Origin: Mobula hypostoma
Lineage: Eukaryota
Assembly (NCBI RefSeq): GCF_963921235.1
Contig: NC_086097.1
Coordinates: 77,688,001 to 77,752,000, forward strand
Direction of reading: 5' to 3'
Length of the DNA stretch: 64,000 nt
In this document: positions 1 through 60,740 of the stretch, in pieces
Position numbering within the stretch: the stretch's first letter is position 1
Layout: each line of letters begins with the position of its first letter
Position numbers and translations under genes: made by a program
The notes under the pieces: generated by a model
What the model was told of the DNA's origin: nothing
Databases searched by the model: none
Seen by the model: the letters and a program-made list of their open reading frames with translations, nothing else

Positions 1-62
1 TTTCAGTGATTTTTATATCCTGAAAAATTAATTGAAACATAGCTCCATCTTTGAATTACTGC

Positions 63-185
63 AAATCACTCTTCCGGACTTCTGAAATGATGGCATTTAA
101 TATTTTATATGAGAGTTGAATGCATTTCCAAAAGTATTTCTGGCTAATATCAACTACTAATCTGGGCTGACATTCAGAGGAGCAG
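63..185 (+). pseudogene. Pseudo-exon: RGS22-type domain end followed by next domain start
   Basis: 63-143 reads KSLFRTSEMMAFNILYES*MHFQKYFW, with TGA at 117-119 where Trp is expected. A shifted frame at 151-180 reads QLLIWADIQR. Confidence 0.6.
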
Positions 186-265
186 CAAGCAAATGCTGCA
201 ATAGGATGGAAAAATGTAGCCAAGACTGATCCTTCTTGGTTGAAAGCAAATGATCACATAGCACA

Positions 266-960
266 ATTCAAAGATTCAAAAGCTCATTTATTATCAAAGT
301 ATACAACTCTGAAATCCTTTTTCTCCAGATAGCCACAAAACTAATAAAGAAAAGAATAATAGTATGCTCATTAACCTCCAAATCCCTTCTTCCTGCACAA
401 AAAAGTAAACAAGAACAGAACAGGCACATTGATCCCCAAATCCTCCTCCCCTGCACACAAAAAAAATGAGAAAGATCGGGTGAAAAACACAGAATACAAA
501 AAAACCCCATAAGACTGAAAAAAAATTCCACAGTCCAAGTCCACATCCAAAACGTAGAAAACCTGAGCAACGTTCTCCCTGTCCGTAGCAGAGTGATCTC
601 ACCAGCGGTAAAAAAGCAGTCTGCCAAACCTGTAGGAAAGCAATCTCACCAGCGATAAAAAGACAGACAGGTGACATTTCAATCTCCCTCGTCACTTTAA
701 TCAGTGAAAAATGGAAAGCTTTAATCAGCAAAATGGAGTCAAGCATCGGCTCACAGCTTTCTCACCACAAGGTTTCCACACACTGCCTTTGCCTCCTGGA
801 ATCTACTCAGAGACTGCAGAACACTGAAACAACTAAATATTCTCCAAACTGCAAATCACGGGCTCCAACCATTCCAGGATCACATTCAAGATTTTAAAAA
901 ATGTAAAAGACATAAAGGAAGTGAAACATATGGTTTCATGATCTATCCAAAAGATGTCAA
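266..960 (-). repeat. Interspersed repeat, probably a non-LTR element 3' region
   Basis: Starts with an (ATTCAAAG)2-like unit plus tttatt (AATAAA on the minus strand). Strongly A/C-skewed and interrupts pseudo-exonic sequence. Confidence 0.4.
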
Positions 961-1039
961 TTCAAAAAGTTTGGAAGTTCTTCTGATGTCTCATATTGAT
1001 TCTGCAAATGGAATCACAAAAAAAAACACTAATGGCAAT

Positions 1040-1145
1040 TTTTCTCACTGGTCCTATGAACATTGCCAATGCATTTCCTATGATAGTACAAGATGAATTT
1101 ATGCCTCAATTCGGCTATCCTAAAGTCGTGAAATTCAGTATAAGA
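1040..1145 (+). pseudogene. Possible pseudo-exon, RGS C-terminal helix
   Basis: NAFPMIVQDEFMPQF, then LKS in a shifted frame; resembles the RGS D-x-x-P-x-F-L-K-S motif. Confidence 0.35.
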
Positions 1146-1457
1146 GTGCAAGTTGGTGCTTTACTTATCATTCCATGGAGGCATCAGTCTTATAATTACA
1201 TATATGATTATAATATAATTACATAGTTAACATAATTACATACTTGTTAAAATATGTCACAATAAAAATTCTAAATATTTCAATATTTAACAGTTCCACA
1301 TTAATTAGTAGGAAAGTTGCACAATGGCTTCACTGATTTGCATTGCAGTGATCATCATGGCATTTACAATATTTGAGCACTGCAAGTATATTGTTATATT
1401 AAGAGAACAAACACCTTTGTTCTTTTAAAAACATTGATAAGATTATTAATTTTCCAG

Positions 1458-1590
1458 ATATGCATGTGCACATTAACCATTTGGAAGCATGGATCAGGAT
1501 GAGCTTCTGCAAAAAGGATTTTCAAACTTGTTTTCACAACACTGAATAAATTCCCCATCTGCCATTCGGCATAGCAAATGATACAGATCT
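1458..1590 (+). pseudogene. Pseudo-exon, RGS helices 4-5
   Basis: Acceptor attaattttccAG ending at 1457 and donor GTATGT at 1591. NHLEAWI in one frame, SAKRIFKLVF in another. Confidence 0.45.
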
Positions 1591-2040
1591 GTATGTAAAA
1601 AGATACGTTGGCCTTTAGGAGGGAATAGATTTACCAAACTGATGCCTTGACTAAAGACTGAATTGCAAAGTGATATTGCAGATTAGGACTGTATTCTCTG
1701 GTTTTTATATAGAAGTTTAACAAGTAATTTGAATACAGTTTTCATTTTCTAGAGGGTATAGTTTCAAAACTAAACTCTGAGGAGTGAAATGAGAAAATCA
1801 ACACATAGGAAATGGTGATCATTAGGAACTATTTTATGCAAATAATAGCAGATAATAGGTCAACTGTTAATTTTAAATCTGGCAGCTGATAGATTCATGA
1901 AATGAGGAAAAGTTGGTGAGTAGGATTCATGGCTATTTATCCTATATTATTTAACCTTTATTATGCATATAGTTCTTGCTACTAACTAAATGACCATTTA
2001 GAAAATAGAACTCTGAACCCACCAATAAAACTGTCTAAAA

Positions 2041-5000
2041 CAGTGGTTCCCAAACACTTTTGGATTACTGTCCCTTGGTTCCTAGATCACATCCTCTGTG
2101 CCCCCTCTCCCTTTCCAGCCATTACATTAGAACTATAAAGAATTTTGATTTACAATGCACAGCGAAAGAAAATAGGAACTGCTAACTCAAAGCAGTGGCA
2201 AATATTTTCCAAAATTTTAAAATCTATTTAAAATACAAATAAAATGATTTCTTTATTTAATTTCAGTTAAAAAATCATCAACAATTTTAGAGTGTATATT
2301 GGTAGTCCAACTATTCACTGCTTCATTGCTTTTTCACTTTTCAATGAGATAGATGGACTTGGTGCAGTGATATCAGTTTCTCAACATCAGGCTGAACATC
2401 ACTCAGAAGGAGTCTCAGATCCCCACGTTCGGTAATTTGCTCTTTGTTTAGTTGCTTTGAAAAAAGTTGGGCGACTGCACCGAAACAATGCACCACTACA
2501 TATGATATTGGATAGGCAAAAAAGAACACCTTGACTTTTTTCCACATTACAGGACAGCATTTAGAGATTTCTTTCTGTTGTTAATAATTTTGATATGATT
2601 TTTTGAACTTCATCTACAACTCAAAGTCATTTTGCAGCGAGATCAATTCTTCCCCCATCCTTCCTGTTAATTCCTCATTTCAAGTGTTCAGGAATGGATT
2701 TATTACCCAATCTGGAATTTGCATCGAGAGGAGGTCCTGAAATCTCTCTGACACATCTTTATGCAGCTCACGCAGCATATCTGAAGATCATCATCTGGTT
2801 TTCTTTCTTTCTCTTCTGACTCTCTGAACTTGGAAATTGGAAAATTGGAAAAGGTCATGACAACTAATCTTGCATTTAAATAGGGTTAACTTAGACAAGT
2901 TTAGACAAACTGATTTTGGTAAGATTCACATCATTTTCTTGCAATTGAAGATTCATTTAATAAATCTTTGTGAATAATTCTGACAATAAGCAATGTCATT
3001 CCCTATATTTTCAACACACACAAAATGCTGGAGGAACTCAGCAGGCCAAGCGCCATCTATGGAAAAGAGTGAACAGTCGACATTTCCGACCAAGACCCTT
3101 AAATTCCTAATTTTCTTGAATTGATTACTGAATGAAGCATTCAAATCTTCACAGAATTTTATCACAATTTCAAAAAGTGCATGAAGCATCTCAGGCAGTT
3201 TCCTTTTGACCCATCTGACTTTCATGTGCAACAGCAAGCGTTCAAACTGTTCATCATTCTCAATACAAAGTTCTCGAAATAGTCAAGAATTGAGAGCATG
3301 GGACTTGATTTTATTTACTGCTGCGATAACAGTATTTAAAGATTTGTACAGCTGATCACTTAGGCTTTTTTTGTGACAAGGTGTTGTCTGTGAATTGCAC
3401 AGTGAATGGTAAATAGGCTGGACACATGTTTTTCCAAAAAAGTAATAATCCACGAGGGTGTCCTGTCCATGAGCTAGTCCTCATCAGAGGATCAGAGGTG
3501 GAGAAGGTCAGCAAATTTAAATTCCTCAGTATCATCATTTCAGAGGACTTGTCCTGGGCCCAGCATGTAAGTCCAATTACAAAGAAATCCTGCCAAGCGC
3601 ACCTACCTCATTAGGAATTTTCAAAGACTCGGCATGACAGCTAAAACTTTGAAAAACTTCTACAGATGTGTGGTGGAGAGCATATAGACTGGCTGCATCA
3701 CAGCCTGGTATGGAAACATCAATGGATTTGAACGGAAAATCCAACAAAAAGTAGTGGATGCAGCCCAGTCCATCACAGGTGAGCATACCATTGAGCATAT
3801 CTACGTGGAGCATTGTTGCAGGAAAGCAGCATCCATCATCAGAGACCCCCACCACCAAATCCATGCTGTCTTCTCACTTCTGACATCAGGGACAAGGTGC
3901 AGGAGCCTCAGGACTCACACCATGAAGTTCAGGAAGAGGTATTACCCCTCAACCATCAGGCTCTTGAACCGAAGGGGGAAACTTCACTCAACTTCACTTG
4001 CCCCATCACTGAAATGTTCCCACAACCTATGGACTCACTTTCAAGGAATCTTCATCTCATGTTCTCAATAATTATTGCTTATTTATTTATTATTGTTTCT
4101 TTCTTTTTGTATTCCCGCAATTTGTTGCCTTTTGCATACTGGTTGAACACCCAATTTGTTGGGTCTTTCATTGATTATATTATCAATTGATAGAGTATTC
4201 CCACTAGAAAATGAATCTCAGGGTTGTATATGGTGACATATTTGTACTTTGATAACAAATTTACTTTTAACTTTGAACTTTTGATGGTGCACAAACTATT
4301 GCACAAGTAAGAATGTTGTAAGTGGAATGTCCTTCTCTTTGAAAATTTTGCTCAGCGACCTGAAATATTGACTCCCCCCATATCTATTTCTAGTCCTTTT
4401 GCAAATTATAACCCTTGAACCATACTTTCATCATTTATCAAGTGAACATAACCATGAAGCAAAGATTCGTTGCCTGGCAAAATTGCAGAGCAATTTATGC
4501 CATCACAAGTATATTGCACAATGTGTCTTCCACATTCTTAGACAGTTCATCTATTCATCCTTGAATGGAATCATTTTCATTATTTGGTTTGGTGACTTAC
4601 GCAAATCCATACTCAGAACCTCCCTTTTATTGCGTGCAAAGTTATCTCTTCCCTAATTGTATGTGGCTTTCCAGATTTGCAGACACACTTCTCAGACGTG
4701 TTTTCTTTTTCTGAAATTTTATACAAAGTGACTGAAAATAAGCCAAGTTCTTGTTTACTTTATCAGGGTGTATTCTCTTCAAATGTTCAAACAGCCTGGA
4801 CGGTTTTTTTGCCCCATTTGGAAAAACTTTTTCACACCACAGGCACACTGGCACTGCTGGTTACTTGATCTTAATATAAATTCATTTTCAGATACACCAT
4901 ATACTCTATACTTCTTTTGGTTTGCTTCTGCCATTTTTGTAATAGATTAATGAACATAGTCAATCATCCGTTGTTTAAGTCTGACCTCAAGTTCTGTGAT

Positions 5001-5613
5001 CAATAAAGGGGAAAATTATGAAGTCATCATAGCTCAGGCAAATCCTGACTCTCTGCCTGAAGGTACAGAAATGAGGGCAGCGATATCTTGGTTGGGCTGT
5101 GGGCTGGAGTGGTCAAAACCATTCGAAAGGGCAGATTCTGACCTTTACCTCACAGAACGTCATACCCTATTTCACAGGAACTGTGTCACTGTGTGACTAG
5201 ATTATATGAATCATATTAGCTAACACTATACTACCGTGCAGAATGGCAATAATGTGCAGGCAAGGCCCAAAAATATCATGATGTCTTCAGTCCAGGTCTC
5301 TCAGGATGTGCCAAATACAGAGGTTTCACATTGCTTTTCAACAACTATAATGAGCTTCCAGCAAAATGTAACAGAACGGTGAGTTAGCAAGTGATGAGGT
5401 GATTATGTGATCATTGTAATCAATTATGAAGCACTGAGGACCAAATGCTTATAATAAAGAATTCATTTCTTAAATTAAGCCTGTAATCCCTCAGCTGTTT
5501 CCCTCGCTACTGAGCACTGCTTCCCCCCCCCCCACCTCTATTTAACTTTATCACCCTGTTAGCAACTCCCACCATCCCCGGGGAGGTGATATTGCCCACT
5601 TTGGGAACGACTG
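2041..5613 (-). mobile_element. hAT-Charlie/Buster DNA transposon, full-length but decayed
   Basis: TIRs cagtggttcccaa / ttgggaacgactg; 8-bp TSD gtctaaaa (2033-2040) / atctaaaa (5614-5621). Transposase relics: BED-finger region CLWCEKVF...KPSRLFEHLKRIH (4642-4854) and C-terminus RGDLRLLL...HQVHLSH (2341-2547). Confidence 0.92.
3430..4285 (+). mobile_element. Rex1/Babar LINE 3' fragment nested in the hAT element
   Basis: VEKVSKFKFLSIIISEDLSW...CCRKAASIIRDPHH...YYPSTIRLLN; (TTGAACT)-like tail. Confidence 0.85.
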
Positions 5614-6145
5614 ATCTAAAATTTGCAAAAGGCTGCATTGATGAATACGGCATTGTTCCCTTTCTGCTCTTTCCTGTAGTCTGATATCCGCAATCTTGCA
5701 TATATGACAATATTTAAGCCATTCCTCGTGAATTTTTCATCTCTTGGCAAACAACAGCATTATTGTCTTACTGTAGACCACAGGGGAAAGTACACTGCTT
5801 AATAATTGCAACAAATACCAACCACCAGTTCAACCTCAACTAAAAATGCATCTAAATTCACGTTGTTCGATTGATCTGTGAATCACAATTGTTAGCAGTG
5901 TAGGAAAATACCCTTTTGAAGCACACATTTGTTATTCGATCATGTAGCTTGTTTAAAAGAGTTAGAAAGGGAAAGATGTAGTAAACCTATAATATCACTC
6001 CAGCCTCTTATTGCTGCAAGAAAGAAATACCAAGTAAAGGTCATTCAGAGGCCTGAAAAAAAATCTAATCCTAACCCAAATGATTTATTACTGGGAGTAG
6101 TGACCTAGTCACCTGTAATACAAATGGAAAGTAGGTAGCAATTCA

Positions 6146-7025
6146 TCTCCTCCATCCCTCCCCAATGATCTCTTTCCTGGCACTTATCCTTGTAAACGGA
6201 ACAAGTGCTACACATGCCCTTACACTTCCTCCCTTACCACCATTCAGGGCCCCAAACAGTCCTTCCAGGTGAGGCGACACTTCACCTGTGAATCAGCTGG
6301 GATGATATACTGCGTCCGGTGCTCCCAATGTGGCCTTCTATATATTGGCGAGATCCAACGCAGACTGGGAGATTGTTTTGCTGAACACCTACACTCTGTC
6401 TGCCAGAGAAAACAGGATCTCCCAGTGGCCACACATTTTAATTCCACATCCCATTCCCATTCTGATATGTCTAACCACTGCCTCCTCTACTGTAAAGATG
6501 AAGCCACACTCAGGTTGAAGGAACAACACCTTATATTCCGTCTGGGTAGCCTCCAACCTGATGGCATGAACATTGACTTCTCTAACTTCTGCTAATGCCC
6601 CACCTCCCCCTCGTACCCCATCCGTTATTTATTTATATACACACATTCTTTCTCTCTCTCCTTTTTCTCCCTCTGTCCCTCTGACTATACCCCTTGCCCA
6701 CCCTCTGGATTTTCTCCCCCCTCCCCCTTTTCCTTCTCCCTGGGCCTCCTGTCCCATGATTCTCTCATATCCTTTTTGTCTATCACCTGTCCAGCTCTTG
6801 GCTCCATCCCTCCCCCTCCTATCTTCTCCTATCGTTCCGGATCTCCCCCTCCCCCTCCCACTTTCAAATCTCTTACTAGCTCTTCCTTCAGTTAGTCCTG
6901 ACGAAGGGTCTCAGCCCGAAACGTCGACTGTACCTCTTCCTAGAGATGCTGCCTGGCCTGCTGCGTTCACCAGCAACTTTGATGTGTGTTGCTTGAATTT
7001 CCAGCATCTGCAGAATTCCTCGTGT
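6146..7025 (+). mobile_element. Penelope-like (Poseidon-type) 3' fragment with GIY-YIG endonuclease
   Basis: ORF 6269-6595 FTCESAGMIYCVRCSQCGLLYIGEIQRRL...LQPDGMN; 10-bp TSD tagcaattca (6136-6145 / 7026-7035). Confidence 0.92.
6894..6929 (+). ncRNA. Minimal type I hammerhead ribozyme motif
   Basis: agtc-CTGACGA-aggg...ccc-GAAA-cGTC-gact: stem I agtc/gact, stem II ggg/ccc, palindromic ACGT stem III, GUC cleavage triplet. Confidence 0.75.
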
Positions 7026-7187: not shown

Positions 7188-7409
7188 GTTATTGAGTCTG
7201 ATCAGCTCATCGGGCAGTGGGAGGAATGATTCGAGTATCTCAAGTATTTTTGTAAGGAAGTATGCTGTCTATCTGATTAAAGTATATCTTGATTTATAAC
7301 TGGTGACAGACTACAAGCTGTTCTGGAGATCACTTTGAGGAGAAGCTCAGCAATATTTCACAGACTAAATGGATACAGGGAAATAGAGAAGAAAAACAAA
7401 CTGCTGGTA
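7188..7409 (+). pseudogene. Exon-like segment with stops in all frames
   Basis: Acceptor attatttttttcAG and donor GTAAGT at 7410. One frame reads SIFVRKYAVYLIKVYL. Confidence 0.4.
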
Positions 7410-11930: not shown

Positions 11931-12460
11931 TAATTCAATTCTCTCTGCACCATCTTCTGTGACAGAGGGTATTTCACCAGACCCTTTGCAAAACGCATGA
12001 GATCCCATGGGTAAACTATATCCGGTATAGTGATCAATTTTAGCAATGTTTTTCTTGTGTGAATTTGAAGCGTCAATTCAGTAAACTGAGTGTGTAATGT
12101 GAATGTATTATGTATCGAATACTTTTTCAGAGTTTGCTGGATGGCTGATGGATGTGACCTCTTATGTGGCAATACAGTTTAAGAATTTTGCTTAAATGAA
12201 GATTGAAGGTACTTAACTTGAGATATGGAGTCAAAAAATAATCATTTAAATGAAAAATGCAATGGAAACCTGCCTTATCCTTATCCCATTTCAACAGAAA
12301 CAAAAATTCTGATGTTTATAGTCTAAAGATAATGAAATTCTGTCTGTTCCCATTTCCTTTCCATATATTAAGACCACAGAAGCAGGTTAGGTGTCAGACA
12401 TTTTTGACAGGCAATCACCTTTGACATAAAACTAATTATGCTTCTGAACTTCTCTGGCAG

Positions 12461-12620
12461 AGGACCTCCTGACTTCAACAGAACTTTGTCAAGCATTTTT
12501 AATGGAAAACAGCAACTACCAAAGGCTTTATTCAGAAGGTTTGCTGCATTCAAGATGCAGCACAATACTAAAGTCCACCATATTCAAGCAAAATACTTTA
12601 CAAATGGCCATACATAAAAT
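12461..12620 (+). pseudogene. Pseudo-exon, RGS-like
   Basis: Acceptor cttctctggcAG ending at 12460. DLLTSTELCQAFLMEN in one frame, KVHHIQAKYFTNG in another. Confidence 0.4.
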
Positions 12621-13714
12621 TAGACAGAAGTTCTCAGACATAACTTTGCATGCAAACCAGCACACACACTATGCTCAATTACCAGAAGTGTTGTGATGTC
12701 TTGACCGTTAAAAGCTTCTGGCTGATTCTAGTCCCAAGAGGAGGGGTGAAGACCCTATCACTCTTAATTCTCACAATGAAATGCACTCTTAACTTCTCTA
12801 TTTCATGTCACTGAGCACAAGGTCAGACCATAATGAGTCTGGAACTTAGTGCACAGAAATATGCTTTTTGAAAAGCAAAAAGAAGCCACATTATCGGTAA
12901 AGCAACAGAGATGCTTGGCACTGCTTAGAGTACATACTGCATCTGGTGCTCTAGGGAGAAAAAACACATTGAAACAGAAATGAGATGGAAGATTCTCAAT
13001 GGGAATGAATCTTCTTATTTATCCAAAAAATGCTATGTTTCATAGAGAAGGAGACATTATTAGTCTGGGGCAAAGAAGTAAGACCCGAACCTCGTTGTCC
13101 ATTTCCCTCCACAGGTGCTGCCTGACTCATTGAGTTCCTCCAGAAGTTTGTGTTTTTGCTTCAGATTCCAGCATTCGTAGACTCTGATGTCTCCATTTAT
13201 TAGTTTAGGTATCATGCTCAATGTATTTTGTGGATTTTAGAGTAAACCTTGTACATTTCTTTTCCCTTGTTATGACGGATGGCATTGGACTATTGCACAT
13301 TGCAAGTGCACTGTTATGCATGATGATTCATTGACTTTGTAAACATCTACAAGAAGTTCTAAAATCATTTGACATGAATACCTAATCCAAAGTACACGTG
13401 CAAGCCAGTAAATGCTGAATACTCTGTTTCCAAGGAACAGTGTGGTATTTTAGATTACTCAGTAAAATCACTACACAGGAAGTTGAAGAAATCATACGAA
13501 CATGGCTGTAACAATGAGCCTATAGAGTAAAGCTCACAATACAATAATAGAGTGGTTCCTGGAAAAAGTCATGAACTTTCGTGTGATTGGTGTGTCTGAT
13601 GTAGGCAAACACATTAAATTAAATGAGACAAGCATTAATTAATTTGTTTGGAGATACAACATGGATTAGGCCATTCTGGTTCTTTGAGTCACACCGCCTA
13701 GTACTTCCTGACAA

Positions 13715-15074: not shown

Positions 15075-15420
15075 TGAGAGGCATTGATCATGTGGATAGT
15101 CAGAGGCTTTTTCCCAGGGCTAGAATGGCTAACACGAAAGGGCACAGTTTTAAGATGCCTGGAAGTTGGTACAGATGAGATGTCAAGGGTGAAGTTTTTT
15201 ATGCAGAGAGTGGTGAGTGTGTGGAACGGGCTTCCGGCGATGGTGGTGGAGGCAGATACGATAGGGTCTTTTAAGAGACTCCTGCACAGGTACTTGGAGG
15301 TCAGAAAAATAGAGGGCTGTGGGTAACCCTAGGTAATTTCTAAGGTAAGGACTGGTTCGGCACAGCTTTGTGGGCCGAAGGGCCTGTATTGTGCTGCAGG
15401 TTTTCTATGTCTCTATGCTT
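15075..15420 (+). mobile_element. CR1 3' end
   Basis: FFMQRVVSVWNGLP...; (TTCTATG)-type tail; near-identical to 46200-46525. Confidence 0.85.
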
Positions 15421-15449
15421 CTATCTGATTCTATACATTCAAGTAGGAT

Positions 15450-15680
15450 TTCACACACAACCATTCTGGATCAACTAAACTTGTTATTCATACAAAAGAT
15501 TTATAAAAGGGACTTGCCATCAAACTCAGAGGAAATCAGGAATCTCTGTAGCATACACTTGATAACTTCCCATTTCTGTGTAACATCTGAAAATCTGAAA
15601 TCTATACCAGTGATCAATTTAGTGTTATCCCAGTTATTCCAGTTTTTCAAAACTAGCATTTTTTTCAGCCTTGTTGTTGG
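15450..15680 (+). pseudogene. Pseudo-exon, RGSL1-like
   Basis: Within ORF 15370-15792: LNLLFIQKIYKRDLPSNSEEIRNLCSIHL...LFQFFKTSIF. Confidence 0.4.
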
Positions 15681-16129
15681 GTTCAGCATGAAGGCAATTT
15701 TATTGAAAATAGTTAATATAGACATAGGTTTGGCTGAAGTGAAGGAAGTTAGCAATCCAGTTGGAATTCTGAATAATTTTCTCTTCAATTGAAGCAGAAC
15801 ATGGGCACTCCCAGGGTCATTAGGATGCACAGTATGTGTATTATATAAATGTGATGCATTTGTTAAATAACAGTGCATTCTCCTACACAGAAATAATTTA
15901 CCAGGAGTTCCTACAACCTATTGATAATATATAAAAAGTCCAGAAATGTTAAAGCTGGTAATCCATATATTCAAACAAACTCAGATTGGGCTCAATGGGC
16001 AATTTGAACCATGGTTTCTGTACCATTTATTAATCTTTGAGTACATCATAATAAAGTTCTCTGAAAATGAATTTCAGCTATTCCTTGACAATTAACTGTT
16101 CTGATAAAATTAAAATAGCAGCACAAAGT

Positions 16130-16900
16130 GCAGCAGTCTGTAGTAAATGGTTACCTCCCTGACTGGTGGCTTGTGAACAGTGGAGTGCCACAGCGATTGT
16201 GCTGGGTCCATTGTCGTTTGTCATGACTTGGATAATAATGTGATAAACCAGAATAGCAAATTTGCACATGACACCAAGTTCCGCGGCGTAGTGGACAGCG
16301 AGGGAGGCTATCAAAACTTGCAGTGGGATCTGGACCTGCTGGAAAAATGGGCGAAAAATAGTAGATGGAATTTAATACAGACAAGTGTGAGGCATTGCAG
16401 TTTGGGAGGACAAACCAGGGTTTAATACATTGTGTGGTAGATGCCGAGAAGTGCGCTAGAACAGAGGGATCTGGGAATACAGATCCATAATTCCTTGAAA
16501 GTGTGTCACAGGTAGACAGAGTCGTAAAGAGAACTTAAGGCACATTGACCTTCATAAATCAGAGTATTGACTGCAGGAGCTGAGAGATTCTGTTGAAGTA
16601 GTATGAGACAACTAGTTGTAGGACAGTTAACAATAAGGTTGAATGAGTACAGAGAAAATTTACAAGGATGTTGCCAGGACTTGGGAACCTGAGTTGTAGG
16701 GAAACTTGAATAGATTTGGTCTTTTTTATCTACTGGAGCATTGAAGAACGAGGGGAGAATTGATAGAAGAATAAAAATTATTAGGGGTGTAGCTAGAGTA
16801 ATTGCAAGCATGCTTTTACCACTGAAGTTGGGTGAGACTATAGAACTTGAGGTCATAGGCTAAGAGTGAAAGGTGAAATATTAAAGGGGAATCCGAGACA
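16130..16900 (+). mobile_element. CR1 RT fragment
   Basis: SKFAHDTK...LQWDLDLLEKWA, followed by downstream RT relics. Confidence 0.85.
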
Positions 16901-16929
16901 ACTATCTGACTCTTGGAGCGCAGGGAGAC

Positions 16930-18372
16930 ATACAAGTTTTTGAAAAGCACGATACATTTTCTTTGCAAGAGAAGATGTTTTGAGTTTTTTTTAAAAAGCA
17001 GGTAATGGACAAAATTCATGGATTTATAAACAGTGTGTACTGAGAGATAATAAAAAAATTTAAAAATTCAGAAATGGCTTGCTACATTGGAACTATAGAA
17101 GCGTTTGATTACCCAAGAGATAACTGAGTGAATTAAGGAATATTTTGAAGCAAATGAAATAGCCAATGAGAAGTGACTACCAGTTTTGTTGAATGTAGTA
17201 GGTGGGAAAGTATACAGTTTTCTTAGAGGTTTGACTGCTCCAACTAAACCAGCCAAATGAGGTTGTGGATATCATGAAAATATGCAGGAACATTTGGAAC
17301 TGAAACCTTTGTTGATTGTAGAACGCTTTAAGTTTCATAAGAGGAATCAAAAAGAAGGGGAGTCCATTGCAGGGTACATGGCTGAATTGAAGAGATTGTC
17401 TGAGCATTGTTATTTCAGTAATGGGCTTAATGATGCACTGAGAGATTGTTTAGTTTGTGGAATCTTAAAAGAAAACATTCAAAAACAGCTCCTAACTGAA
17501 GTACAACTTACTTTTAAAAGAACAATTTAAATAGCTGTTGACTTGCAGTCAGGAATGAAAGTGAATGTGAATAAAACAGCAGAATCCAGAACAGGGGTTC
17601 CCAAACTAAGTCCACAGACCGCTCGGTTAATGGTAAGGATCAGTGGCATAAAATAGGTTGGGAAACCCTGGTCTAAAAGGAGGTCTGCCTGACCGATCAA
17701 ATTGTGTTACTATTGTGGCAGGGGCTCACAAACACCAAACCAATGCACATTTAAAGATGAAACTTGCAGAAAATGCAATAAAATAGGACATACAAAGAGC
17801 ACATGGGGCAGACAAAACTAAAGGGACTGCACAAGGAAGTGAAAAAGATAAAAAGTCGAATTGTATTTTTGAAAAGAACACTAATCTGCATGCTTTTCAT
17901 AAAAAATCTGATAATAATGAGACTGACATAAGACTGAGTGGCCTTGAGATTTACAATGTGAAAACTAACAAGAAACAAGAAATATGGCTCATACCAGATG
18001 TAAACAACAACTTAATTAAAATGGAATTTGACACTGGCTTGGCTGTTTCAGTCATTCCACAACATGAGACTGAATGACAGTTCAAAGATACTGAACTGAA
18101 GTCGCAAATATCCAACTAAGAACTTATACTGGAGAAAATATCACTCATGTGGGAATGACACTCATTACAGTGCAATACAATAACCAACAAGCCACATTGG
18201 ACTTTGATGTAATAAAAAACAGGAGGGCCAGCATTGTGGGTGTATGAGTGGCTGAGCCAACTACAGCTTGATGGGAGATCCATCCACCATTTGGATGCCA
18301 CATCCCGTACAACAGAGTTAACTGAAAGTGAATTAATAAAGGTATTGGATGATGCCACAGCGGTGTTCAAAT
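16930..18372 (+). mobile_element. Ty3/Gypsy (Mag-like) gag-protease relic
   Basis: ERFKFHKRNQKEGESIAGYMAELKRL...LRDCLVCGI; tandem Zn-knuckle relics CYYCG...C...CRKCNKIGH; protease IKMEFDTGLAVSVI near 18015-18055. Confidence 0.88.
17592..17670. mobile_element. 79-bp hAT-Charlie MITE inside Gypsy gag
   Basis: TIRs caggggttcccaa / ttgggaaaccctg; degenerate 8-bp TSD atccagaa / gtctaaaa. Confidence 0.8.
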
Positions 18373-21060: not shown

Positions 21061-21260
21061 CTCCCAGATTGATAGTTGTTATTTAAGATTCCTGTAATGA
21101 GATTGCTAGTGGATTGACTCATTTGACCTGACTTCTCCATCTACTTCTCTATGGTCAGCAATACTGAACACTCATTTGTATTTTATGAGACACACACTGT
21201 GACCATGTCTCAACTTTGTAAAGATCGTTCCAAAAGTGCATTGATAATACTCAGTATATA

Positions 21261-21853
21261 CAGTTAATTGGGCCATCAGTTAACCAGGGCAGCTGCTTTT
21301 TTTGGGACAACTCTTAACAAGCAAAAACTAACTGAGAAAATAGCTGAGATGCTCTTTGTTTATTTGGGACATGATGCCACTTAATTGGAACAGGAGACTG
21401 TTGCCAAAGTTTCTCACCAGCGTCAGTCACATGTACTTGTGTGGCTGTTAAACATTGTCCTGTGCTTTGAGTGAACAGTTTTTAAATACCATCAGTTGCC
21501 TGTGCTTGTGTTCAAAGAGCAGTAATTTTTGTCACTGATACTTGGTGAGAAATAAGCAGAGAAACACTTCTGACCTATTTTGCTCAATGTGGTTTCAAGC
21601 ATTCAAGCTTTGAGATGCCTGAAATGGTCAGGAGTAAAAATGAAATGTTGTTACTATTTCAACAAGTCAGGAACTACAATGAATTTGAAAGTATTGACAA
21701 TCACCTTGACTTTTACTCAATTTGCCTGTTTACTAGTTTGTCTGTTTTCTACATTTTTATCTATTTTCATGAAACTTTGGCAAATTGAGGCAGCCACTAA
21801 ATTGGGCCAAAATATATTGGTCCCAATACGTCCCATAAAACTGGAATCAACTG
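21261..21853. mobile_element. Tigger/pogo-like non-autonomous DNA element
   Basis: TA|cagttaatt...aatcaactg|TA ends; repeated aattgggcca/tttgggaca subterminal motifs. Confidence 0.65.
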
Positions 21854-22933
21854 TACATATTTTAAGATTATGAACATTCTTATTGAGAAAAACAATGCTT
21901 CAGTTAACTCCCCAAGTGTTCCAATTTCTCTCCAACAACATAAATTTCAAATTCCCAAATTGAGTATACACAAATCACCAATTTCCCAAAATGCCAATTT
22001 CCTTCTAGAATGAGGGAATCTCATATCTGGAATAGAGACATTCACACATTCACATTCATCATCTTAACCTGGAATTCACATGGCCAGTGTGGAACCTGGG
22101 TCTCTGTCTTTCCAATACCTATTCCAAAGAAAACAAATAAATGGACAGAAACTAAAAACACAGATAAGACAGAACAAAAATCCATGCTTGGACTTTTCCT
22201 ATTTCTGAAGCTATACAAATAAACTGAAAATAGATGGAACAAACAATTTATTACATAATAAACATATTCCAAAGAACAGAGGAAATGAAAAGACAAATGG
22301 ATGGACCTGCCTCACATGCACATTCACACAATTTCTCAGAGACTTCTCCTTAAGTCAAGAAGCCTGCCTTACTAAGTGCATCTATCCCCAGGACAGTACC
22401 TTCATTGTTCAGATATACACTGAAATCCACTGGAAAGCACATTCCCTCCTCTCATGTATCTGCACCTCATTTTTTTCTACCCTCATAGTTTTCCCAACTG
22501 TAAGAGAAATAGCCTCCCCAGTCATGGACAAGGGCATGTCAGTTATGGATACTGAAGTTCCTGTGTTCCCTGACACATCACATTGCTGGTCTCTTGTATA
22601 CATTCATGGGTGACTAGTACTGACAATGGATGCTACCGGTGGTTGTTTGTCTGATTAGGATGCTGTTTTTACTAGTTCTATCACTACTCACTACCTTAGA
22701 CTGCTGAAGCCACTAGCCAGACAGTGGGTCACGGGCATCTCCCAGGCAAGCCCTGAAATGTGACTGTGATCAGAATCACCAGAGAGATACTGGAGTTGTG
22801 AATATGAAAGTCTTTATTCACCATAGCAAGCAGACATTGTCTGGAGGCACCCTGTTAGAGGGTCTCTAATTCAAAAGTACATCACATTCTTTACACCCTT
22901 AAGATCTATGATAACAGTTGATGATTCAGTACA

Positions 22934-26078: not shown

Positions 26079-26149
26079 GATGATTCAATACAATTTCAAC
26101 AGTTACAATGACATTGTTTACTACTATACTTTGTAGTTCTTTTGAAGTA

Positions 26150-35671: not shown

Positions 35672-36420
35672 TATAAGACACAGCAGCAGAATTGGGCCAT
35701 TTGGCCCCTTGAGTCTGCTCCACTATTTCATCATAACTGATTTATTTTCTCCCTCAGCCCCAATCTCCTGCCTTCTCCCTGTATCCCTTCATGCTCTGAT
35801 GAATCAAGAATCTATCAACCTCAATCTCTACCTTAAATGATTTGGCCTCCACAGCCTTCTGTGCCAAAGAATTTCACTGATTCACCATTCTCTGGCTAAA
35901 GAAATTCCTTTTCACCTCTGTTCTAGAAGGAAACCTCTCTTTTATGAGGCCGTGTCCTTTGGTCTTAGACTTTCCCGCCAAAGGCAACATCCTCTCCACA
36001 TTCACTCTTTTAACGTTTGATAGGTTTCAGTGAGTTCACCCCTCATTCTTCTGAATTCCAGTGAGTAGTCAAACACTCCTCATATGACAAGCTTTTCAAT
36101 CCTAAAATCATTTTCCTGAACCTCTTTTAAACCCTTTCCAATGTCAGCTCATATTTTCTTAGATAAGGACTCAAAACTGCTCACATAACTCTAAGTGAGG
36201 CCTCATTAGTGCTTTATAAAGCCTCAACATTACATTCTTGCTTTTATATTCTAGTCCTCTCAAAATGAATGCTAACTTGCCTTCCTCACTATTGACTCAA
36301 CTTGCAAATATACCCTGAGGGAATCCTGCACTAGGACTCCCAAGTCTCTTTGCACCTCAGATTTCTACATTTTCTCTCCAGTTAGAAAATAGTCTGTGCT
36401 TCTTTTCCTTCTACCAAAGA
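35672..36420 (-). mobile_element. CR1 3' fragment
   Basis: Colinear with and similar to 19870-21000. Confidence 0.85.
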
Positions 36421-36959
36421 AGTAGAATGCCCATGGTGAATTACTGAATCAGAATCAAACAGTGATTTGATTCTGTGGCCCACTGACTCTACACCAGCCA
36501 AGAAGCACCAATATAACATACCCTACACTAATTCCATCTTATTCTCCCACATTCCCATCGACTCCTCCCACATTCTCATTGCCTGCAGATTCCAGCATTT
36601 GCCTACAATGCGAAGGTCAATTTACAAAGACCAATCAACTTACAGTACGGAACATGCATGGATGCAGGAGGAAGCTAGAGCACTAGGAGGAAATAGATGG
36701 TTCCATGCAAACAGCACCTGAACCCAGAATACTGGGGCTGTGAGACAGCAGCATTACCCACTGCACCACTCCATCACACTGCTTCCCGGTGCTTCACAGC
36801 GGGTCTCCTAACCTGGGAGAGGGAATTGACTGATACCAGACAGAAATCAGCTTATGCTGTTTTTACATGAGGGCTTGCTTGTTGTATTAGCTGCTGACAA
36901 TTAGTATTTGGCTTGGAATATACTCATTATGTTTTCCTCCTTTCCCCATGACCTCACTT

Positions 36960-37246
36960 TCGTTCCCTCCTATCTTGCCTCATTTTGGAGATGGGATCGA
37001 TATTCAAAAACTGTTCAAGGTTTGTGGATCAAGCAGTGCAGACTGAGCAATCCCATCTCCAGCATTGGCAATGAAGATTCCTGGCCGAAAGGCAGAGCAG
37101 GGATGTATCAGAACCGGGAACTTCTTCAGCTCACCAGCGTAAAATATATGGGGAATTTATTTTCTCGTCTACTTGAGGACAGAGATGACACTGAAGATGA
37201 ATGGATTATTGACTTTACAATTTTAGGCTCTAATGCAAACAGATAA
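36960..37246 (+). pseudogene. Possible pseudo-exon
   Basis: LASFWRWDRYSK and GNLFSRLLEDR...IIDF within ORF 36908-37246. Confidence 0.3.
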
Positions 37247-37465
37247 AATGTTGAATATTTTTGTTTCACGAAAGCAGCATCCTTTGGTATGTCAGAAGCT
37301 CACCAGGAGTTGAAAGAACGAAGTCGGCCCACTCTTGATGAACATGGGATGGGAGGGCAATGGACTATATTGGTTTCTGCAGGTTACACCAGGAGCCTCA
37401 ATGTCTCGAGCTTTATATTTTAGATTGGCTCTATATTTATACCCAATTGCCTCTGTACAGAGGAG

Positions 37466-37795
37466 AGGCACAGTAGCACAGTTCATAGTGCTAACACTGC
37501 CTCACAGCGTCAGAGACCCAGGTTCGACCCTGACTTTATATACAGTCTACGTGGAGCTTGCACATTCTCCTTCTGACTCTGTGGGTTTCCCCTGGGTGCT
37601 TAGGTTGCATTCCACATACCAACGTTGTGCAGGTAGATTAACTGGCCACCATAAATTGCCCCCGGTGTGCAGTTTAAATAGTTAAAATGTGGAGAGAATA
37701 AAAGAATAACAAAGGATTAGTATAAATGAATAGTTGATGGTCAGCATCAACTTAATGGGCCAAAGGGCCTGTTTGCACGCTGCATAACTCTGTGA
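37466..37795 (+). mobile_element. V-SINE (HE1-like)
   Basis: tRNA-like head with B box ggttcgaccc, V-domain-like gtggagcttgcacattctcc...gtgggtttcc, CR1-like tail. Confidence 0.7.
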
Positions 37796-38069
37796 CTTTG
37801 TAACTCTTTAGTCAGACTTACAATGAAGGACAGTTAAGCTTTTCCTTGAAGGCTCTCTCAAATAAGTCAGTTACATCCAGCAGAGAGCAGTCTGCATTAT
37901 GTCTGCGACTGCAAACCACTAGACCATAACCCCAAGCCAACAAAGCAGGCTTGGACACTCAGATGAGCACATACAATAATCTCTATGTGCAGCAAATCTA
38001 CAAAAAAAAGCTGTATTATGTTCAATATAATTATGTGGATTAGGTGGGAATTTCAGTAGTAAAGAGGTT

Positions 38070-38265
38070 AAAGATCACTTTTCACATGAATCTCCACAGT
38101 ACATTTCACACTTATCAACAGATTCATACCGAAGCTTCAGTTTCCTAACATTCACAAATTCGTACAGGTCTCTTTCAAATACAGGTTGTAGTTCTTACAG
38201 CAGCCTTATGAAAAAGGAAGAACAGAGCTATTTTGTTGAAGCAAGTATGTAAAGCTAACAAAAAC
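38070..38265 (+). pseudogene. Pseudo-exon, RGS helices 5-8
   Basis: DHFSHESPQYISHLSTD, then GLFQIQVVVLTAAL* in a shifted frame; a GTATGT donor-like site follows. Confidence 0.45.
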
Positions 38266-38386
38266 AAATTAGCATATCCTGTCCAGGATAAAGTTATACT
38301 TCAATAGACAACACTAAAATCAAGCAACACACATCAAAGTTGCTGGTAAACGCAGCAGGCCAAGCAGCATCTGTAGGAAGAGGTGC

Positions 38387-38422
38387 AGTCGACGTTTCAG
38401 GCCGAGACCCTTCGTCAGGACT
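38387..38422 (-). ncRNA. Minimal hammerhead ribozyme motif in a short Penelope-derived insert (about 38320-38438)
   Basis: Minus strand: agtc-CTGACGA-agggtctcggcct-GAAA-cGTC-gact. Confidence 0.72.
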
Positions 38423-39239
38423 AACTGAAGGAAGAGTGATCAACATCACATTATCTTTTGTGGAGATCTGATTTGGATAAAAATATTTCTGTACTTCCTA
38501 CGCTATCACAGTGACCAGATTCAGAAAGTAATTTATTTGCTATCAAGAGCTTTATGATATTGTGAAGTTTTTATTTCCATTGATTTCAGTCTTTCTGCTA
38601 CCACTCATATTATGCTGGTACAAGTCAAAATTAATACAAACATATGTTTGGTTCAGAGACCTTTAATGGAATGGCTCACCACTCTTTTCAAACTTTCTAA
38701 TCATTACAAAGATCCGTGACTTTAATAACATGACTGTCTTTATCTCAAAAACATCTTACAAAGGGTTCACATCGAAGGGTTCACACTTATTCTCCTTGCA
38801 CAAATTAAATGTTTAACCCATTACAATTTTATTCGTATTTTCAGTAGCTACAATTTTTTAAAAATTTGCTTTATACTGTATCTTCCAAAATCAATTTTTT
38901 TTGAATAATTGTATTGCTTGTAAATGTATGATGTTTCTGTGTGTGCATATGTATGTATATATACACATATGCACAAGTAGTTGTAGAGATTGGAATAAAC
39001 AAGTGTTAACTACTTTGAACATTTATTTCTGATTTATTGCACTATACAGTATTTTTTTTAGAATAGGATCACACAAATGCATTACAATTGGTTTAAAGGA
39101 TGGAAAGAATACTTCTTCAATGGAAGGGAAAACATAATCAGCATTGTGACCATTACAGCAGTTTGAAACAGCATTGCAGAGCAGAGCTGTGAGTAACCCT
39201 GAGTGAATATGACAAGTGTGGGTATGGGCGAGAGTATCA

Positions 39240-39310
39240 GTCAAAATTCTGTAGAATAAAGGAGGAACATACTGGTTTGTGAAATTCTGGGATACATAAA
39301 TTTGCCAAGG
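39240..39310 (+). pseudogene. Pseudo-exon fragment, RGS start
   Basis: KIL*NKGGTYWFVKFWDT* resembles the FL...GG..LVxFW motif. Confidence 0.4.
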
Positions 39311-39730
39311 GGCATCACAACTTTTGCAGAGAAGAATGAGACTAACCAGAAGTTGTGTGGGCAGTGGAGTCAATGTGGGTAAATGGTCAGTCCAGGATAC
39401 ATACGAAAACTCTTGAGATGTCCCACAGTGTGTGAGTCATATTAAGAAAATCACACCCTTTTAGGTAAATTAAAACATTAGTGTTATTAAAACACAGGGG
39501 GAAAAAACACCTACTGTATGTGAAACTGAATTCCAAATGGCCATATGAGATTATTCTGACCCACAATGTTGGTCGTAGTTTGGATCTGAGAACTGAAACC
39601 AGAATGGAAATAAGCATCTAGCATGAATGCTTCAAAATCATACTGAGACTTAGTATTGGAAGAGTAAGAAGAAATATTAAATGACATCGTGACAGATAAA
39701 GTAGGACATAATGCCCCTATTCATATTCAG

Positions 39731-39808
39731 CCAGTCTTCTATATCCAACAGCCTGCCCTGTTTGCATTGAGGGACTAGGTGGAGAATGAGTTACAGCTCC
39801 TACTTAAG
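39731..39808 (+). pseudogene. 78-bp phase-0 pseudo-exon
   Basis: Acceptor ttcatattcAG and donor AAG|GTATGT. PVFYIQQPALFALRD*VENELQLLLK with one TAG. Confidence 0.45.
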
Positions 39809-40400
39809 GTATGTACGGCTGAATTATGTGCGGCCTGTACATACAAACAAGCATTTAGAAGACCAGTTGGATGGATTTGCTGGCTGCTCTGGAGCTGCAG
39901 ATATCTTCTGCCACCTGGAGCTCGATTCACAGCTACGTTTCCAGGTTACAAAAAGATCACAGAGGACTGACACCCTGCTATGTCCTGGGAAGGACCTGTA
40001 GATAAATCAGAATGAAATGGGAAGCTAGTAAAGATGATTCAGAGTGATAGGGCAACACCAGTTGCAGAACTGTGAACAGATAGAACTATGATGGACAGTG
40101 CCCATGTCTCACCTTGCATAATTCACGTGCAAAATCGGCAGCAGCCAAAGTTTAACCCAAACCAGATGTGTCACCTGCAGATGCTCAGATGAATGTGGAT
40201 ATTTCATAATTAATATGCTTAAGGGCATGTGTCCTTGCACAAAACTGCCTCATAGTGAGAAATCATCAACAAAAATTGGTAAGGCTCCCATGGGAAAAAT
40301 ACTACAAGGTATAGACAAGTGTCAGGCAATCAGAGTTAAGTCGTAACAGCCATAAATCCAGGAGAAGAAAAAAGTTTGAAGATTAGATGTGGTCTGATGG

Positions 40401-40897
40401 TACAAGGGATGATTGATAAGTTTGTGTCCTAAGATAGAAGGAGTCAATTTTAGAAAACCTAGCACATTTATTTTTCCTACATTTACACACTTAGTCCAGC
40501 AGTTGTGGAGCATACGTATCCCTTCTTTGTAGAAGTCGGCATCTTGGACCTCCAGAGGTGGTCCACAGCAGGAGTGATTAATAAATTCATGGCCTAAGGT
40601 AGATGGAGATGAGGAGAAACTTCAAACTTTCTGCATTTTCACTCAAAGGGTTGAACAGCACGTGCATGTAACGAGAGCTGTATAATTCATCTCCTTCTCC
40701 CTTAGGCCATGAACTTATCAATCACCCCTGCTGTGGACCACTTCTACAAAGAAGGGATCCGTATGCTCCACAACGCTGGACTAAGTGTGTACATGTAGCG
40801 GGGGGAGGGGGGGACTATGTTGAAAAATAGATGTGCTAAGTTTTCTAAAATTGACTCCTTCTACCTTAGGCCACGAACTTATCATTCACCCCTCGTT
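40401..40897. mobile_element. Tc1/mariner-type palindromic MITE
   Basis: TA-caagggatgattgataag...cttatcattcacccctcg; arms of about 210 bp, each with an inner repeat of the TIR. Confidence 0.8.
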
Positions 40898-41234
40898 TAT
40901 AAACCAGTGTGCTTTTATAAGAAAGTTTATCTTGGGTTGAAGCAGCATCAAGTGACTTGCAACCATCAAAGGAAAAGTTGAAGCAAGTGTGAAGGTAAAG
41001 GAAGCTGAAGTTATTCAATTACAGAGATCAACTAGGGATGACCACTTTACAGATTCGGAAATGGCTGTAAGATCTTTATAAACGAAAGATATTGTTATAA
41101 TGAAAAAGGGACCGGTAACTCCTTACACAAAATGGATCAAGACGCTTACAACATGATGCACTATTGAAGAATCAAAATCCATTTTCCTAAATTATGTCTT
41201 ACTGGACGTTGTAGTTGGAGCTAAAATAGTCATA

Positions 41235-41770: not shown

Positions 41771-42802
41771 GTACAACAATTAATTTTTTAAAATTTGTAT
41801 TTGAACACTATGAAGGAAGACAGCTTTTGGCACATATCACATTGACTACAACATCCAACGTCAAAATGTGTGGCAGAGACACTGGAGAAAATTAGCAAAG
41901 TGGTACTGAAGATGCCAGTAAAGCATAAATGCAATTGAGTTTAAGAATTAAACAATAATTCACAATCTTCTTGCTAAAACATGAATGACATCGTATTCTA
42001 CAATGGGTTAATCTTGTTGAGTTACGAATGTGCGTAAGACACAGAACGAAGCTGAGCTCAGTTCAGCTAAGTTTTCAAGGGACCATAGAGAGAGGTATTC
42101 AAGACAGGAACAAAGAATGAACTCAGACCTAGAAAGATTTGACAAAGCTTTTGTGTCAGTATCACTTCCACTGCTAAATTCTCTTTTCTTTTTTTTTTGG
42201 GGAATTTATTTTTTATTGCAGTTCATTATCAAACAAACAATTCCAGAAGATATAAGCGCAGAATTAGGCCATTTGGCTCATCATTTCCTCCTGCATTCCG
42301 TCATGGTTGATTTATTATTCCTTTCAACCCCATTCTCCTGCCTTCTCCTATAACTTTTGTTACCATTAATAATCAAGAACCTATTAATCTCCATTTTAAA
42401 TATACCAAATGGCTTGGCCATTTCTGACGATGAATTTCACAAATTCACTACTCTGTGGCTAAAGAAATTCCTGCTCTTCTCTCTTCTTAAGGAGCATCCT
42501 TCTTCCTGAGACTGCTCTCTGGTCCTAGACTCCTCTACTCTATCTATCTGGGCCTTTCAATATTTGATAAGTTTCATTTTTATATCCCAAATGTCAATTC
42601 AACTGAAAAAGACAACTATATTATTCATTTCAAAACTATGCCAATTTACTGTATACTCTGGCATACAAGCTTTGCAATCAAACTTTAATTCTGTCCTGAC
42701 AGAAGACTGCCGTTCCTTAGTATTCAAATTTTGCCTGTGCCTTAAGGGAATGGTAAATATTTCAATTGCTAACAAAAAGAAGTGCTGCTTGATTTTCTTT
42801 AG

Positions 42803-43480
42803 CTAAAGCCAAGCATTTATTTATTATTTCAAACATACTTTGAAAGTAGTTTTCTCTTTTATTCAAATTTTTACAATGGAGCGGCCAAATATTTGCTGTG
42901 ATCTCATCAGGAAACTGCCATCCAAAGCAGAGATCATTAACTGAATAGACATATAAACCAGATTGCAAGCAGTTCAGTTTTGCTGAATGTCTGTCACTCA
43001 TGTGAGTGATGGCAAGGATGAGGAATATTTCATTGAGCATCTGACAAGCAATTCCATTTTGAATGCGACCTTGACATCTAAGCATCAGCCTCACTTCCCC
43101 TACAGAGCAGAGCAGAAATGCAAAAGCATTAGTACGTTGGAAAATAGTTGAGGTCCCACTGACTTTAACAGAAGGGAGCCAGTAATTCTGCATGAAAGAG
43201 ATATTCAGTTCCAGTGATGCGTGGTGAAAAATATGCAGACAATCAGTGTCTCACCATGAAAGAAATGCAGATATCTCATGGCCAACTATGAAAGCGATGC
43301 AGGTAAACATTGACTCACCGTGGTGGAGGCACACACTCCAATGCGGAAGCCTGGAAGAGACATTTCAACCACTGCTTCAGGGAAGAAATGCAGAGAAAGA
43401 ACTTCTTTATGTACGGTACAGCTAAAGGCCAACATTTCCACACCTGTTTGGTTGTAGTGGGTAGCTGGACAAATCATGAA
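42803..43480 (+). pseudogene. Pseudo-exon region resembling the RGS22 N-terminal part
   Basis: Acceptor gattttctttAG. YFESSFLFYSNFY...AKYLL*, a linker, then FREEMQRKNFFMYGTAKGQHFH and a frameshifted VWL (RGS22-type FKxFxxGTxGExxxxLWxDIE). Confidence 0.55.
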
Positions 43481-43849
43481 AGTGTAATTTATTCGAGTGG
43501 TTGTCACCAGCTACTGGTAAACCCCAATTTCCCCAAGAGCATCTAGAGGGAAAAAAGCTGCTGTGTGTTTAATTTAATATAAAATATGATCTTATCGTCA
43601 GCAACAACAAAGTGCAGCCAAGTTTCTACATTCCAGTATGATTTTATTGCTGCAAATGAACTTTGCTGAATAAATCAACTGAGACAAGGAGAAATTAATA
43701 CTTTAGAAGCAGAACATGTCTAATTGAACAGCTGTTTGCAATATTAGCATGTTTATTCAGAACAACTAGAATACTGTATGCAAATTACCAATGAAATACA
43801 TGAAACTGAAGACTTCTGTCTCACATTATCGCTGTGTACGTGTCCTCAG

Positions 43850-58925: not shown

Positions 58926-59035
58926 TCTCATGTACTCTCTTCAACACAACAACTTCCTTTCTATAGTGTGGTGTCCAGAACTGCACACAATACTCTAAGC
59001 ACAGTCTATAATCAGTGTTGTATAAAGTTGTAAAG

Positions 59036-59857
59036 TAGATTAGATTAGATTCAACTTTATTGTCATTGCGCCAAGTACAGATACAAAGCCAATGAAATGC
59101 GGATAGCATCTGACCAGAAATGCAAATAGTGTTATTTACAAAATAACTGTGAATAAAAAGTAAGTGCTACAGCACACAAATAAAAAAGTACTGAGACAGT
59201 ACAATACGGATGCAATACTGCTTAGCGCTGTGATGTGAGGTTCAGCAGGTACACAGCCTCAGGGAAGAAGCCCTTCCTGTGCCTGCTGGTGCAGGAGTAG
59301 AGGCTCCTGTAGCACCTACCAGATTGGGGGAGAGTAAAAAGTCCATGGTTAAGGTGAGATGCATCCTTGATAATGCTTTTCGCCCTGCCCAGGCAGTGTT
59401 TTTGGTAGATGTTCTCAATGGTGGGCATTTGGGTGCTGATAATTCGCTGGGCAGTTTTCACCACGCGCTGGAGTGCTTTGCGGTCCGATACAGAACAATT
59501 GCCATACCACACTGAGATGCAGTTAGTGAGTATGCTCTCAATGGTACAGCGGTAAAAGTTCGTCAATATCCTGGGACAGAGGTGAGCTTTCTTGGTGCTC
59601 CGCAGAAAATAAAGGTGCTGTTGCACCTTTTTGATCAGGATGGAGGAGTTCAGGGACCAGGTGAGATCCTCGGAAATGTGGACACCAAGGAATTTGAAGC
59701 TTGATACATGCTCCACTACAGCTCTGTTGGTGTAGATGGGGAAGTGAGTGTGGCTCCTAGCATGCTTGAAGTCCACAATGATCTCCTTGGTCCTCTGGGT
59801 GTTAAGGGCTAGGTTGTTGTTGGCACACCATGCGGCCAGGTGCTGGACCTTGTCCCT
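59036..59857 (-). mobile_element. Rex1/Babar 3' fragment, still an open reading frame
   Basis: ORF 59222-59914 LAAWCANNNLALN..KTKEIIVDF..FKFLGVHISEDLTW..FYRCTIESIL; (TAGAT)n reversed tail. Confidence 0.92.
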
Positions 59858-59926
59858 GTAGTAACATACTAACTTTAAATTCTGTGCCCCAACCAATGAA
59901 AGCAAGACAGTCATATGCCTTTTTCA

Positions 59927-60330
59927 TATAACCATATAACCATATAACAATTACAGCACGGAAACGGGCCATCTCGGCCCTTCTGGTCTGTGCCAAACTC
60001 TTACTCCCATCTAGTCCCACCGCCCTTCACTCAGCCCATAACCCTCCATTCCTTTCCTGTCCATATATCTATCCAATTTAACTTTAAACGACAACATCAA
60101 ACCTGCTTCAACCACTTCTGCTGGAAGCTCGTTCCACGCAGCTACCACTCTCTGAGTAAAGAAGTTCCCCCTCATATTACCCCTAAACTTTTTGCCCTTT
60201 AACTCTCAACTTATGTCCTCTTGTTTGAATCTCCCCCATTCTCAATGGAAAAAGCCTATCCACATCAACTCTATCAATCCCCCTCATAATTTTAAACACC
60301 TCTATCAAGTCCCCCCTTAACCTTCTACGC
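59927..60330 (-). mobile_element. CR1 3' end
   Basis: (ATAACCAT)n reversed tail plus CR1 terminal RT sequence. Confidence 0.85.
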
Positions 60331-60434
60331 TATTTTTCACTATTCTATCTACCTGTCTTGATTGAATCCCAAGATTCCTCTGTTGGCCAACATTCCTAAG
60401 TGTCCTACTAATGCCAATAGCCTACTCAAATTTC

Positions 60435-60740
60435 CATCTGATCTGGCTGGGAGAAAGGTGGGTGGTGGTTCGCCAGGGACTGAAAACTTGAGGAATTTTG
60501 GTACTCAGAAGCTAAAATCGCTTTCACTTGTTTGGGAAATAGCAATGGTGGAGAGAGTTGGGTGCCCTCAGGAGATAGAATGAAGGAAATAATTTCAAGT
60601 GGACTTGATATCGTGTTCTCAGCATCCTAATATAACCCGCTTAGTGATATCATCTTCAGGTCATGCAAAAGCAGAATTCATATGGTTATACATGTATCAG
60701 TATCCTACAGAGTCCAGATGTATGGTTGTATATTGACAGG
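60435..60740 (+). pseudogene. Pseudo-exon, RGS ENL-x-FW motif
   Basis: SDLAG...GTENL, then frameshifted EFWYSE near 60480-60510; later EIISSGLDIVFSAS* and VWLYID. Confidence 0.45.

Follow-up and report, generated by a model that had tools for sequence, protein, structure and literature searches.

The stretch of DNA analysed here (the window) comprises 64,000 nucleotides of Mobula hypostoma contig NC_086097.1, positions 77,688,001 to 77,752,000; its G+C content is about 40%, no intact gene was seen in it, and it has no Rfam match (0 matches). Mobile-element relics fill most of the window and crowd the DNA between 27 repeat-free islands, which amount to about 20.5 kb under a mask drawn by hand; self-BLAST hits within the window cover 15.8 kb. 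We take the sequences at 16900-18370 (+), 6119-6595 (+), 22930-26084 (-), 2040-5620, 21250-21860, and 40402-40896 to be mobile-element relics, presumably including a broken Gypsy-like gag region, Penelope-like elements, a hAT-like relic, a Tigger-like element, and an inverted-repeat MITE; the three pieces run against Pfam returned no hit in support of these names. SINE-derived frames at 37460-37670 and 38310-38470 have matches among the isoform proteins annotated in Mobula hypostoma (Tim8 A isoforms, LOC134345377), and these proteins therefore contain exonised or mis-annotated SINE sequence.

The islands of interest are read on the plus strand, where the original prediction had placed a large multi-RGS pseudogene of the RGS22/RGSL1 type, naming four segments between good splice sites. 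At the left end, a candidate relic at 69-137 (+) looks like the final helices of RGS22 domain 4: it matches the region around residues 1095-1117 of the RGS22 protein P0010 (see below) without gaps, with a profile score of 43 where profile controls reach 43.7-43.9, and it is the best plus-strand hit of hmmsearch at 3.0 bits where controls reach 4.0 bits. A repeat-like insert separates positions 1-335 from the candidate relic at 808-1093 (+), a stop-free frame within ORF 725-1096 whose spacing by eye resembles that of helices 4 to 9; it is the top glocal peak for helices 3 to 5 (34, compared with a mean null top of 30) and found no match in Pfam, the PDB, the ESM Atlas, or the protein database. 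The first segment of the original prediction, 1458-1590 (+), has AG/GT ends that are weak sites, and no profile support. The candidate relic at 5680-6110 (+), absent from that prediction, has one frame like RGS22 domain 2 and a strong acceptor (7.8), holds the top plus-strand peak of the general profile (44.9), is cut at 6119 by a Penelope-like end, and has no Pfam or PDB match. Within the second named segment, 7188-7409 (+), a candidate stretch at 7343-7390 resembles the linker between RGS22 domains 3 and 4 (6 of 16 residues identical), with a tblastn E of 15 and a score of 42 against control maxima of 51-61. The candidate relic at 12408-12730 (+), with a frame like helices 3 to 5, gives profile scores of 34-38 and no ESM Atlas match; 35 of 55 positions are identical between 12455-12509 and 43145-43199 (26.4 bits, control maxima 25.8-26.5). 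Further candidate islands were picked by eye only at 15440-16100 (+), which overlaps ORF 15349-15792 and has no Pfam or PDB match, and at 26480-26900 (+), which has no Pfam match.

To the right lie i) a candidate relic at 28285-28564 (+), like helices 3 and 4 (profile 36.8), of which 28285-28350 resembles 43602-43667 with a pair score of 44 against control maxima of 47-55; ii) a candidate relic at 31331-31641 (+) that includes the third named segment (31492-31641), scores 42-46 on the profile, gives the top full-length glocal peak (30, mean null top 29.6), and has no Pfam or PDB match, its RGS-like frame extending upstream of the acceptor at 31492 and the best donor site in all repeat-free DNA following just after its top profile peak; iii) a candidate relic at 36994-37400 (+), like the end of RGS22 domain 3, with a profile score of 45.8 against control maxima of 44.8-48.9; iv) a candidate relic at 37981-38136 (+), like helices 5 to 9, which is the best-scoring partner of 941-1093 (pair score 50, control maxima 47-55); v) the fourth named segment, 39731-39808 (+), with a good donor and no profile support; vi) a candidate island at 40890-41230 (+), scoring 44.9-56.9 on a profile of domains 3 and 4 with several frameshifts and having no Pfam match; vii) candidate islands at 42860-43830 (+), picked by eye and by weak internal repeats; and viii) a candidate island at 60450-60760 (+), where the original prediction ended, picked by eye only and without a Pfam match.

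Read by eye, the next island after the linker match at 7343-7390 holds a frame like the start of domain 4 (12408-12614), 36994-37089 resembles the end of RGS22 domain 3, and both 5680-6100 and 31331-31594 resemble RGS22 domain 2 with spacing about right. All such resemblances were primed by the original prediction and lack a blind control. Mammalian RGSL1 (RGS-like 1), a relative of RGS22 biased to testis, also has several RGS domains, and some pieces of the window may be like its last domain. The helix-like spacing seen by eye at 808-1093 and 37981-38136 likewise recalls a canonical RGS domain, whereas none of 62 window frames matches the Pfam model for that domain (PF00615).

The comparators were RGS22 proteins and loci. 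A short motif pattern matched 14 metagenome loci, and 12 of these are RGS22 exons or ORFs. One 3.8-kb metagenome contig carries an intron-free RGS22 frame of 1233 codons (L002:21-3719, minus strand), probably from an invertebrate transcript or retrocopy; its 1233-aa product, P0010, has three Pfam RGS stretches, matches bovine RGS22 with an E of 5e-152, and was not found as an exact protein in the protein collection. The general RGS profile was built from the fetched RGS22 domains and 8 bacterial RGS domains, these two sources making up all the comparators. RGS domains are usually taken as eukaryotic. A stand-alone gene for a 174-aa RGS-domain protein (PF00615, 61-67 bits, over the cut-off) lies in a Ramlibacter metagenome-assembled genome (G001, L019:606-1130, plus strand), and in two related genomes (L022, G329; L028, G1194), among bacterial-looking genes; an RGS hit was present in 3 of 401 genomes from the searched family and in 4 of 400 from a class sample, and L023-L027 (G161, G847, G1097, G1104) hold bacterial RGS-domain proteins of 171-408 aa at 22-41 bits. 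No RGS22 was found in viral and prokaryote contigs.

The splice sites and motifs on which the original prediction was based proved largely commonplace. All four named segments do have AG before and GT after on the plus strand, as claimed, and only in 31492-31641 are these signals unusual: splice pairs as good occur once on the plus strand (the segment itself) and never on the minus strand, compared with 333, 14, and 4 pairs on the plus strand and 437, 29, and 2 on the minus strand for 1458-1590, 7188-7409, and 39731-39808, respectively, as scored with splice frequency tables. Disabling stops are present in all three frames of each segment (2/3/1 in 1458-1590, 3/4/5 in 7188-7409, 3/3/4 in 31492-31641, and 1/1/2 in 39731-39808), and non-coding DNA looks likewise. 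The short motifs of the RGS pattern, said to run along the plus strand, are not enriched there relative to minus, reversed, complemented, or shuffled sequence: F..FL-type motifs number 48 on the plus strand and 50, 45, and 52 on the minus, reversed, and complemented sequences, x.FW-type motifs 21 versus 24, 23, and 16, and FW occurs 19 times on each strand of the repeat-free DNA. Since the counts are equal on all strands, the motif count by itself carries no weight; the three long RGS patterns had 0 matches on any strand of the repeat-free DNA, even with TAG and TGA read as W. Nor does the figure of about ten FW-type helix-4 motifs or domains allow an objective count, which leaves ten domains, and with them the size of the parent gene, unsupported.

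These observations are what one would expect if the islands were ordinary old non-coding DNA (intronic or intergenic, with unrecognisable repeats) in which RGS-like words arise by chance across three frames, stops, and shifts, an explanation to which we give somewhat less than an even chance. The nearly equal base composition of candidate islands and other repeat-free DNA agrees with it, as do the blank database searches. PF00615 was listed, at any E-value, for 0 of 24, 0 of 25, and 0 of 13 window frames (cut-off 23.9 bits; single frames, part of all frames), a failure that is weak evidence because on Pfam the pieces of intact RGS22 domains themselves reach no more than 19-36 bits. A phmmer search of the PDB with six window queries listed no RGS chain up to an E of 5-10, though bovine RGS22 is in that library; word-based protein searches gave 0 of 466 candidates of 336-2000 aa for query P0002, whose frame may be wrong, and 0 of 13 candidates of 1760-5600 aa for the 725-1093 frame; one frame of 36903-39482, run by phmmer against 1.84 billion representatives, had 6 hits, every one of them to a stretch derived from a SINE; and two stop-free window frames met no RGS cluster in the ESM Atlas. 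All of these searches read one frame at a time and are therefore weak for a frameshifted relic.

Against chance stands a small but repeated plus-strand excess in the frameshift-tolerant profile scans. With the general profile, the six top peaks of the repeat-free DNA sum to 224 on the plus strand versus 190, 206, and 192 in the strand controls; Markov nulls attain this sum in 5 of 150 and 4 of 150 cases (best p about 0.03, for one of more than 10 tests), and five plus-strand peaks reach at least 34 versus 1 in each strand control, with as many in 16 of 150 and 10 of 150 nulls. With a generic profile from RGS22 only, the island sum is 934 on the plus strand versus 911, 917, and 862, and none of 12 shuffles reaches it (825-898). 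At a lower frameshift cost the island test drops to Z 0.7. The plus strand is highest in whole-window top-peak sums in 8 of 10, 4 of 4, and 3 of 3 settings, which are correlated rather than independent, and the top peaks at 5935-6090 and 31331-31427 had not been picked beforehand by eye. The candidate islands also show 3-base periodicity at 240 nt (Z 2.0, versus -0.1 in other repeat-free DNA), and none at 90 and 150 nt.

Most of the controlled tests were nonetheless null, as the chance explanation would have it. No single window piece beats the best control peak, and profiles of domain 2 and domain 3 show no plus-strand excess; the HHalign top-10 sum is 139 on the plus strand versus 138, 150, and 135; leave-one-out enrichment gives Z 0.9 on the plus strand versus 1.3 on the minus strand and 2.0 reversed, in a series in whose base test one pure null reached Z 2.4; and the glocal scans are reached by 17 of 60 (whole-domain), 6 of 60, and 50 of 60 nulls. 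The colinear plus-strand similarity above background that the original prediction led one to expect did not appear: a spliced, frameshift-aware alignment to RGS22 domains 2, 3, and 4 in order scored 65, compared with 61, 71, and 52 in controls and 57-71 in 10 nulls, using a scorer without a positive control. DNA and protein self-comparisons (gapped, translated, motif-clique, and ungapped repeats) were mostly null against controls, the translated self-alignment and motif-clique search leaving out 12 of the 27 islands; the internal repeats of the candidate islands lie at the noise ceiling, and a MAFFT alignment of seven window pieces has no invariant column. The exception is the island pair 15420-16140 and 26080-26950, whose translated self-alignment reaches 69 when frameshifts are penalised less (control maxima in that setting up to 58) and 46 when they are penalised more.

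How much these null results count against a distant paralogue depends on power, which is poor. Held-out divergent RGS domains rose above the background maximum in 4, 15, 4, 18, 15, and 7 of 20 trials after 15% decay, and in 3, 9, 1, 8, 14, and 2 of 20 after 20% decay, and the null tests therefore do not refute a distant paralogue; peaks of 34-45, as seen in the window, are expected from 15-20% decay and also from the null tail. A relic of an old RGS22/RGSL1-type paralogue, narrowly our leading reading, and chance motifs stand at about even odds.

Much less probably, the islands come from a gene, on either strand, for a helical protein outside the RGS family. Three stop-free minus-strand frames of 137-162 codons in repeat-free DNA (15501-15917, 39023-39436, and 42762-43250) overlap candidate islands where 0.6 +/- 0.6 would be expected, although the ORF list was consulted when some of the islands were selected; against such a gene, the plus-strand frames tried have no Pfam, PDB, or protein-database match.

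That the islands are the decayed RGS22 orthologue of this lineage is very improbable. The best by-eye matches are indeed to RGS22 domains 2-4 and the domain 3-4 linker (compared with mouse and bovine RGS22, PDB 9fqr_Ha, and with the invertebrate P0010), but they do not rise above noise, whereas an orthologue would stand out plainly: a genuine RGS22 locus, kept out of the profile and given in silico 30% substitutions and 2% indels, scored at least 72 in 8 of 8 runs, whereas the window reaches 52.6, in a repeat, with controls at 46-52; at 35% decay the RGS22 control has a mean score of 64 and a minimum of 36. The best tblastn E of P0010 against the window is 0.17-0.36, on the minus strand, and, unlike fetched RGS22 loci, the window has different candidate exon ends, broken frames throughout, and candidate pieces that repeat out of RGS22 order.

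An intact gene that assembly errors make look broken can be virtually dismissed, no evidence having been found in its favour: the stops are substitutions and occur in all frames, a 0.98 share of 421 sampled 31-mers of 36420-40400 is present in read-derived contigs (four runs, possibly of the source sample), leaving room for about three sequence errors only, and 0.55 of the words of the same interval are present in runs under a second species label (about 98% identity by arithmetic), so that the breaks in this interval look real. No sequencing run containing these words is listed as RNA; runs guessed to be RNA contain 0.08-0.18 of the sampled words, which counts as no evidence of expression.

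We return to the distant paralogue, in which the plus-strand islands would be heavily decayed exons of one dead multi-RGS gene of the RGS22/RGSL1 type, not RGS22 itself, and to which we give close to an even chance. Such a gene would have died long ago and then gathered stops, indels, and insertions, the latter perhaps including the repeat-like insert at about 335-760 and the Penelope-like end at 6119, and no protein would be made from the islands today. RGS22 belongs to radial spokes RS1/2, and its four RGS domains lack the residues for G-alpha contact (PMC13443885; PMC11779644); by analogy, the parent protein may have served motile cilia or sperm flagella as a helical scaffold without catalytic activity. 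RGSL1 is named as a gene in a further paper (PMC6213947), and a term search of the main text of a manta and devil ray genome preprint gives 0 occurrences of RGS, pseudogene, gene loss, or radial spoke (10.64898/2026.10.27.761883).

A broader proposal, which we consider doubtful, is that the RGS22/RGSL1 family has or had in cartilaginous fishes a third, undescribed member, exceeding 2000 aa and with at least 8 tandem RGS-like domains, which would be a candidate for a long scaffold in cilia or sperm flagella and would have disappeared from this ray lineage. When residues 815-1125 of P0010 were used to look for RGS22-like proteins of 2159-5000 aa, 0 of 506 candidates qualified, weak evidence given the search tool, and literature searches, judged by their listings, turned up no paper describing such a long multi-RGS protein.

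At present the locus is either dead or non-coding, the proposed gene is unproven, and its value is that of a lead; if the RGS-like words arose by chance, no feature exists here at all. If instead the distant-paralogue reading is true, the relic is a pointer to a multi-RGS protein that has escaped annotation and could be sought in intact form in sharks, skates, and chimaera, and, RGS22 being a part of the radial spoke and not a G-protein switch, its lineage-specific loss may touch the structure of sperm or cilia.
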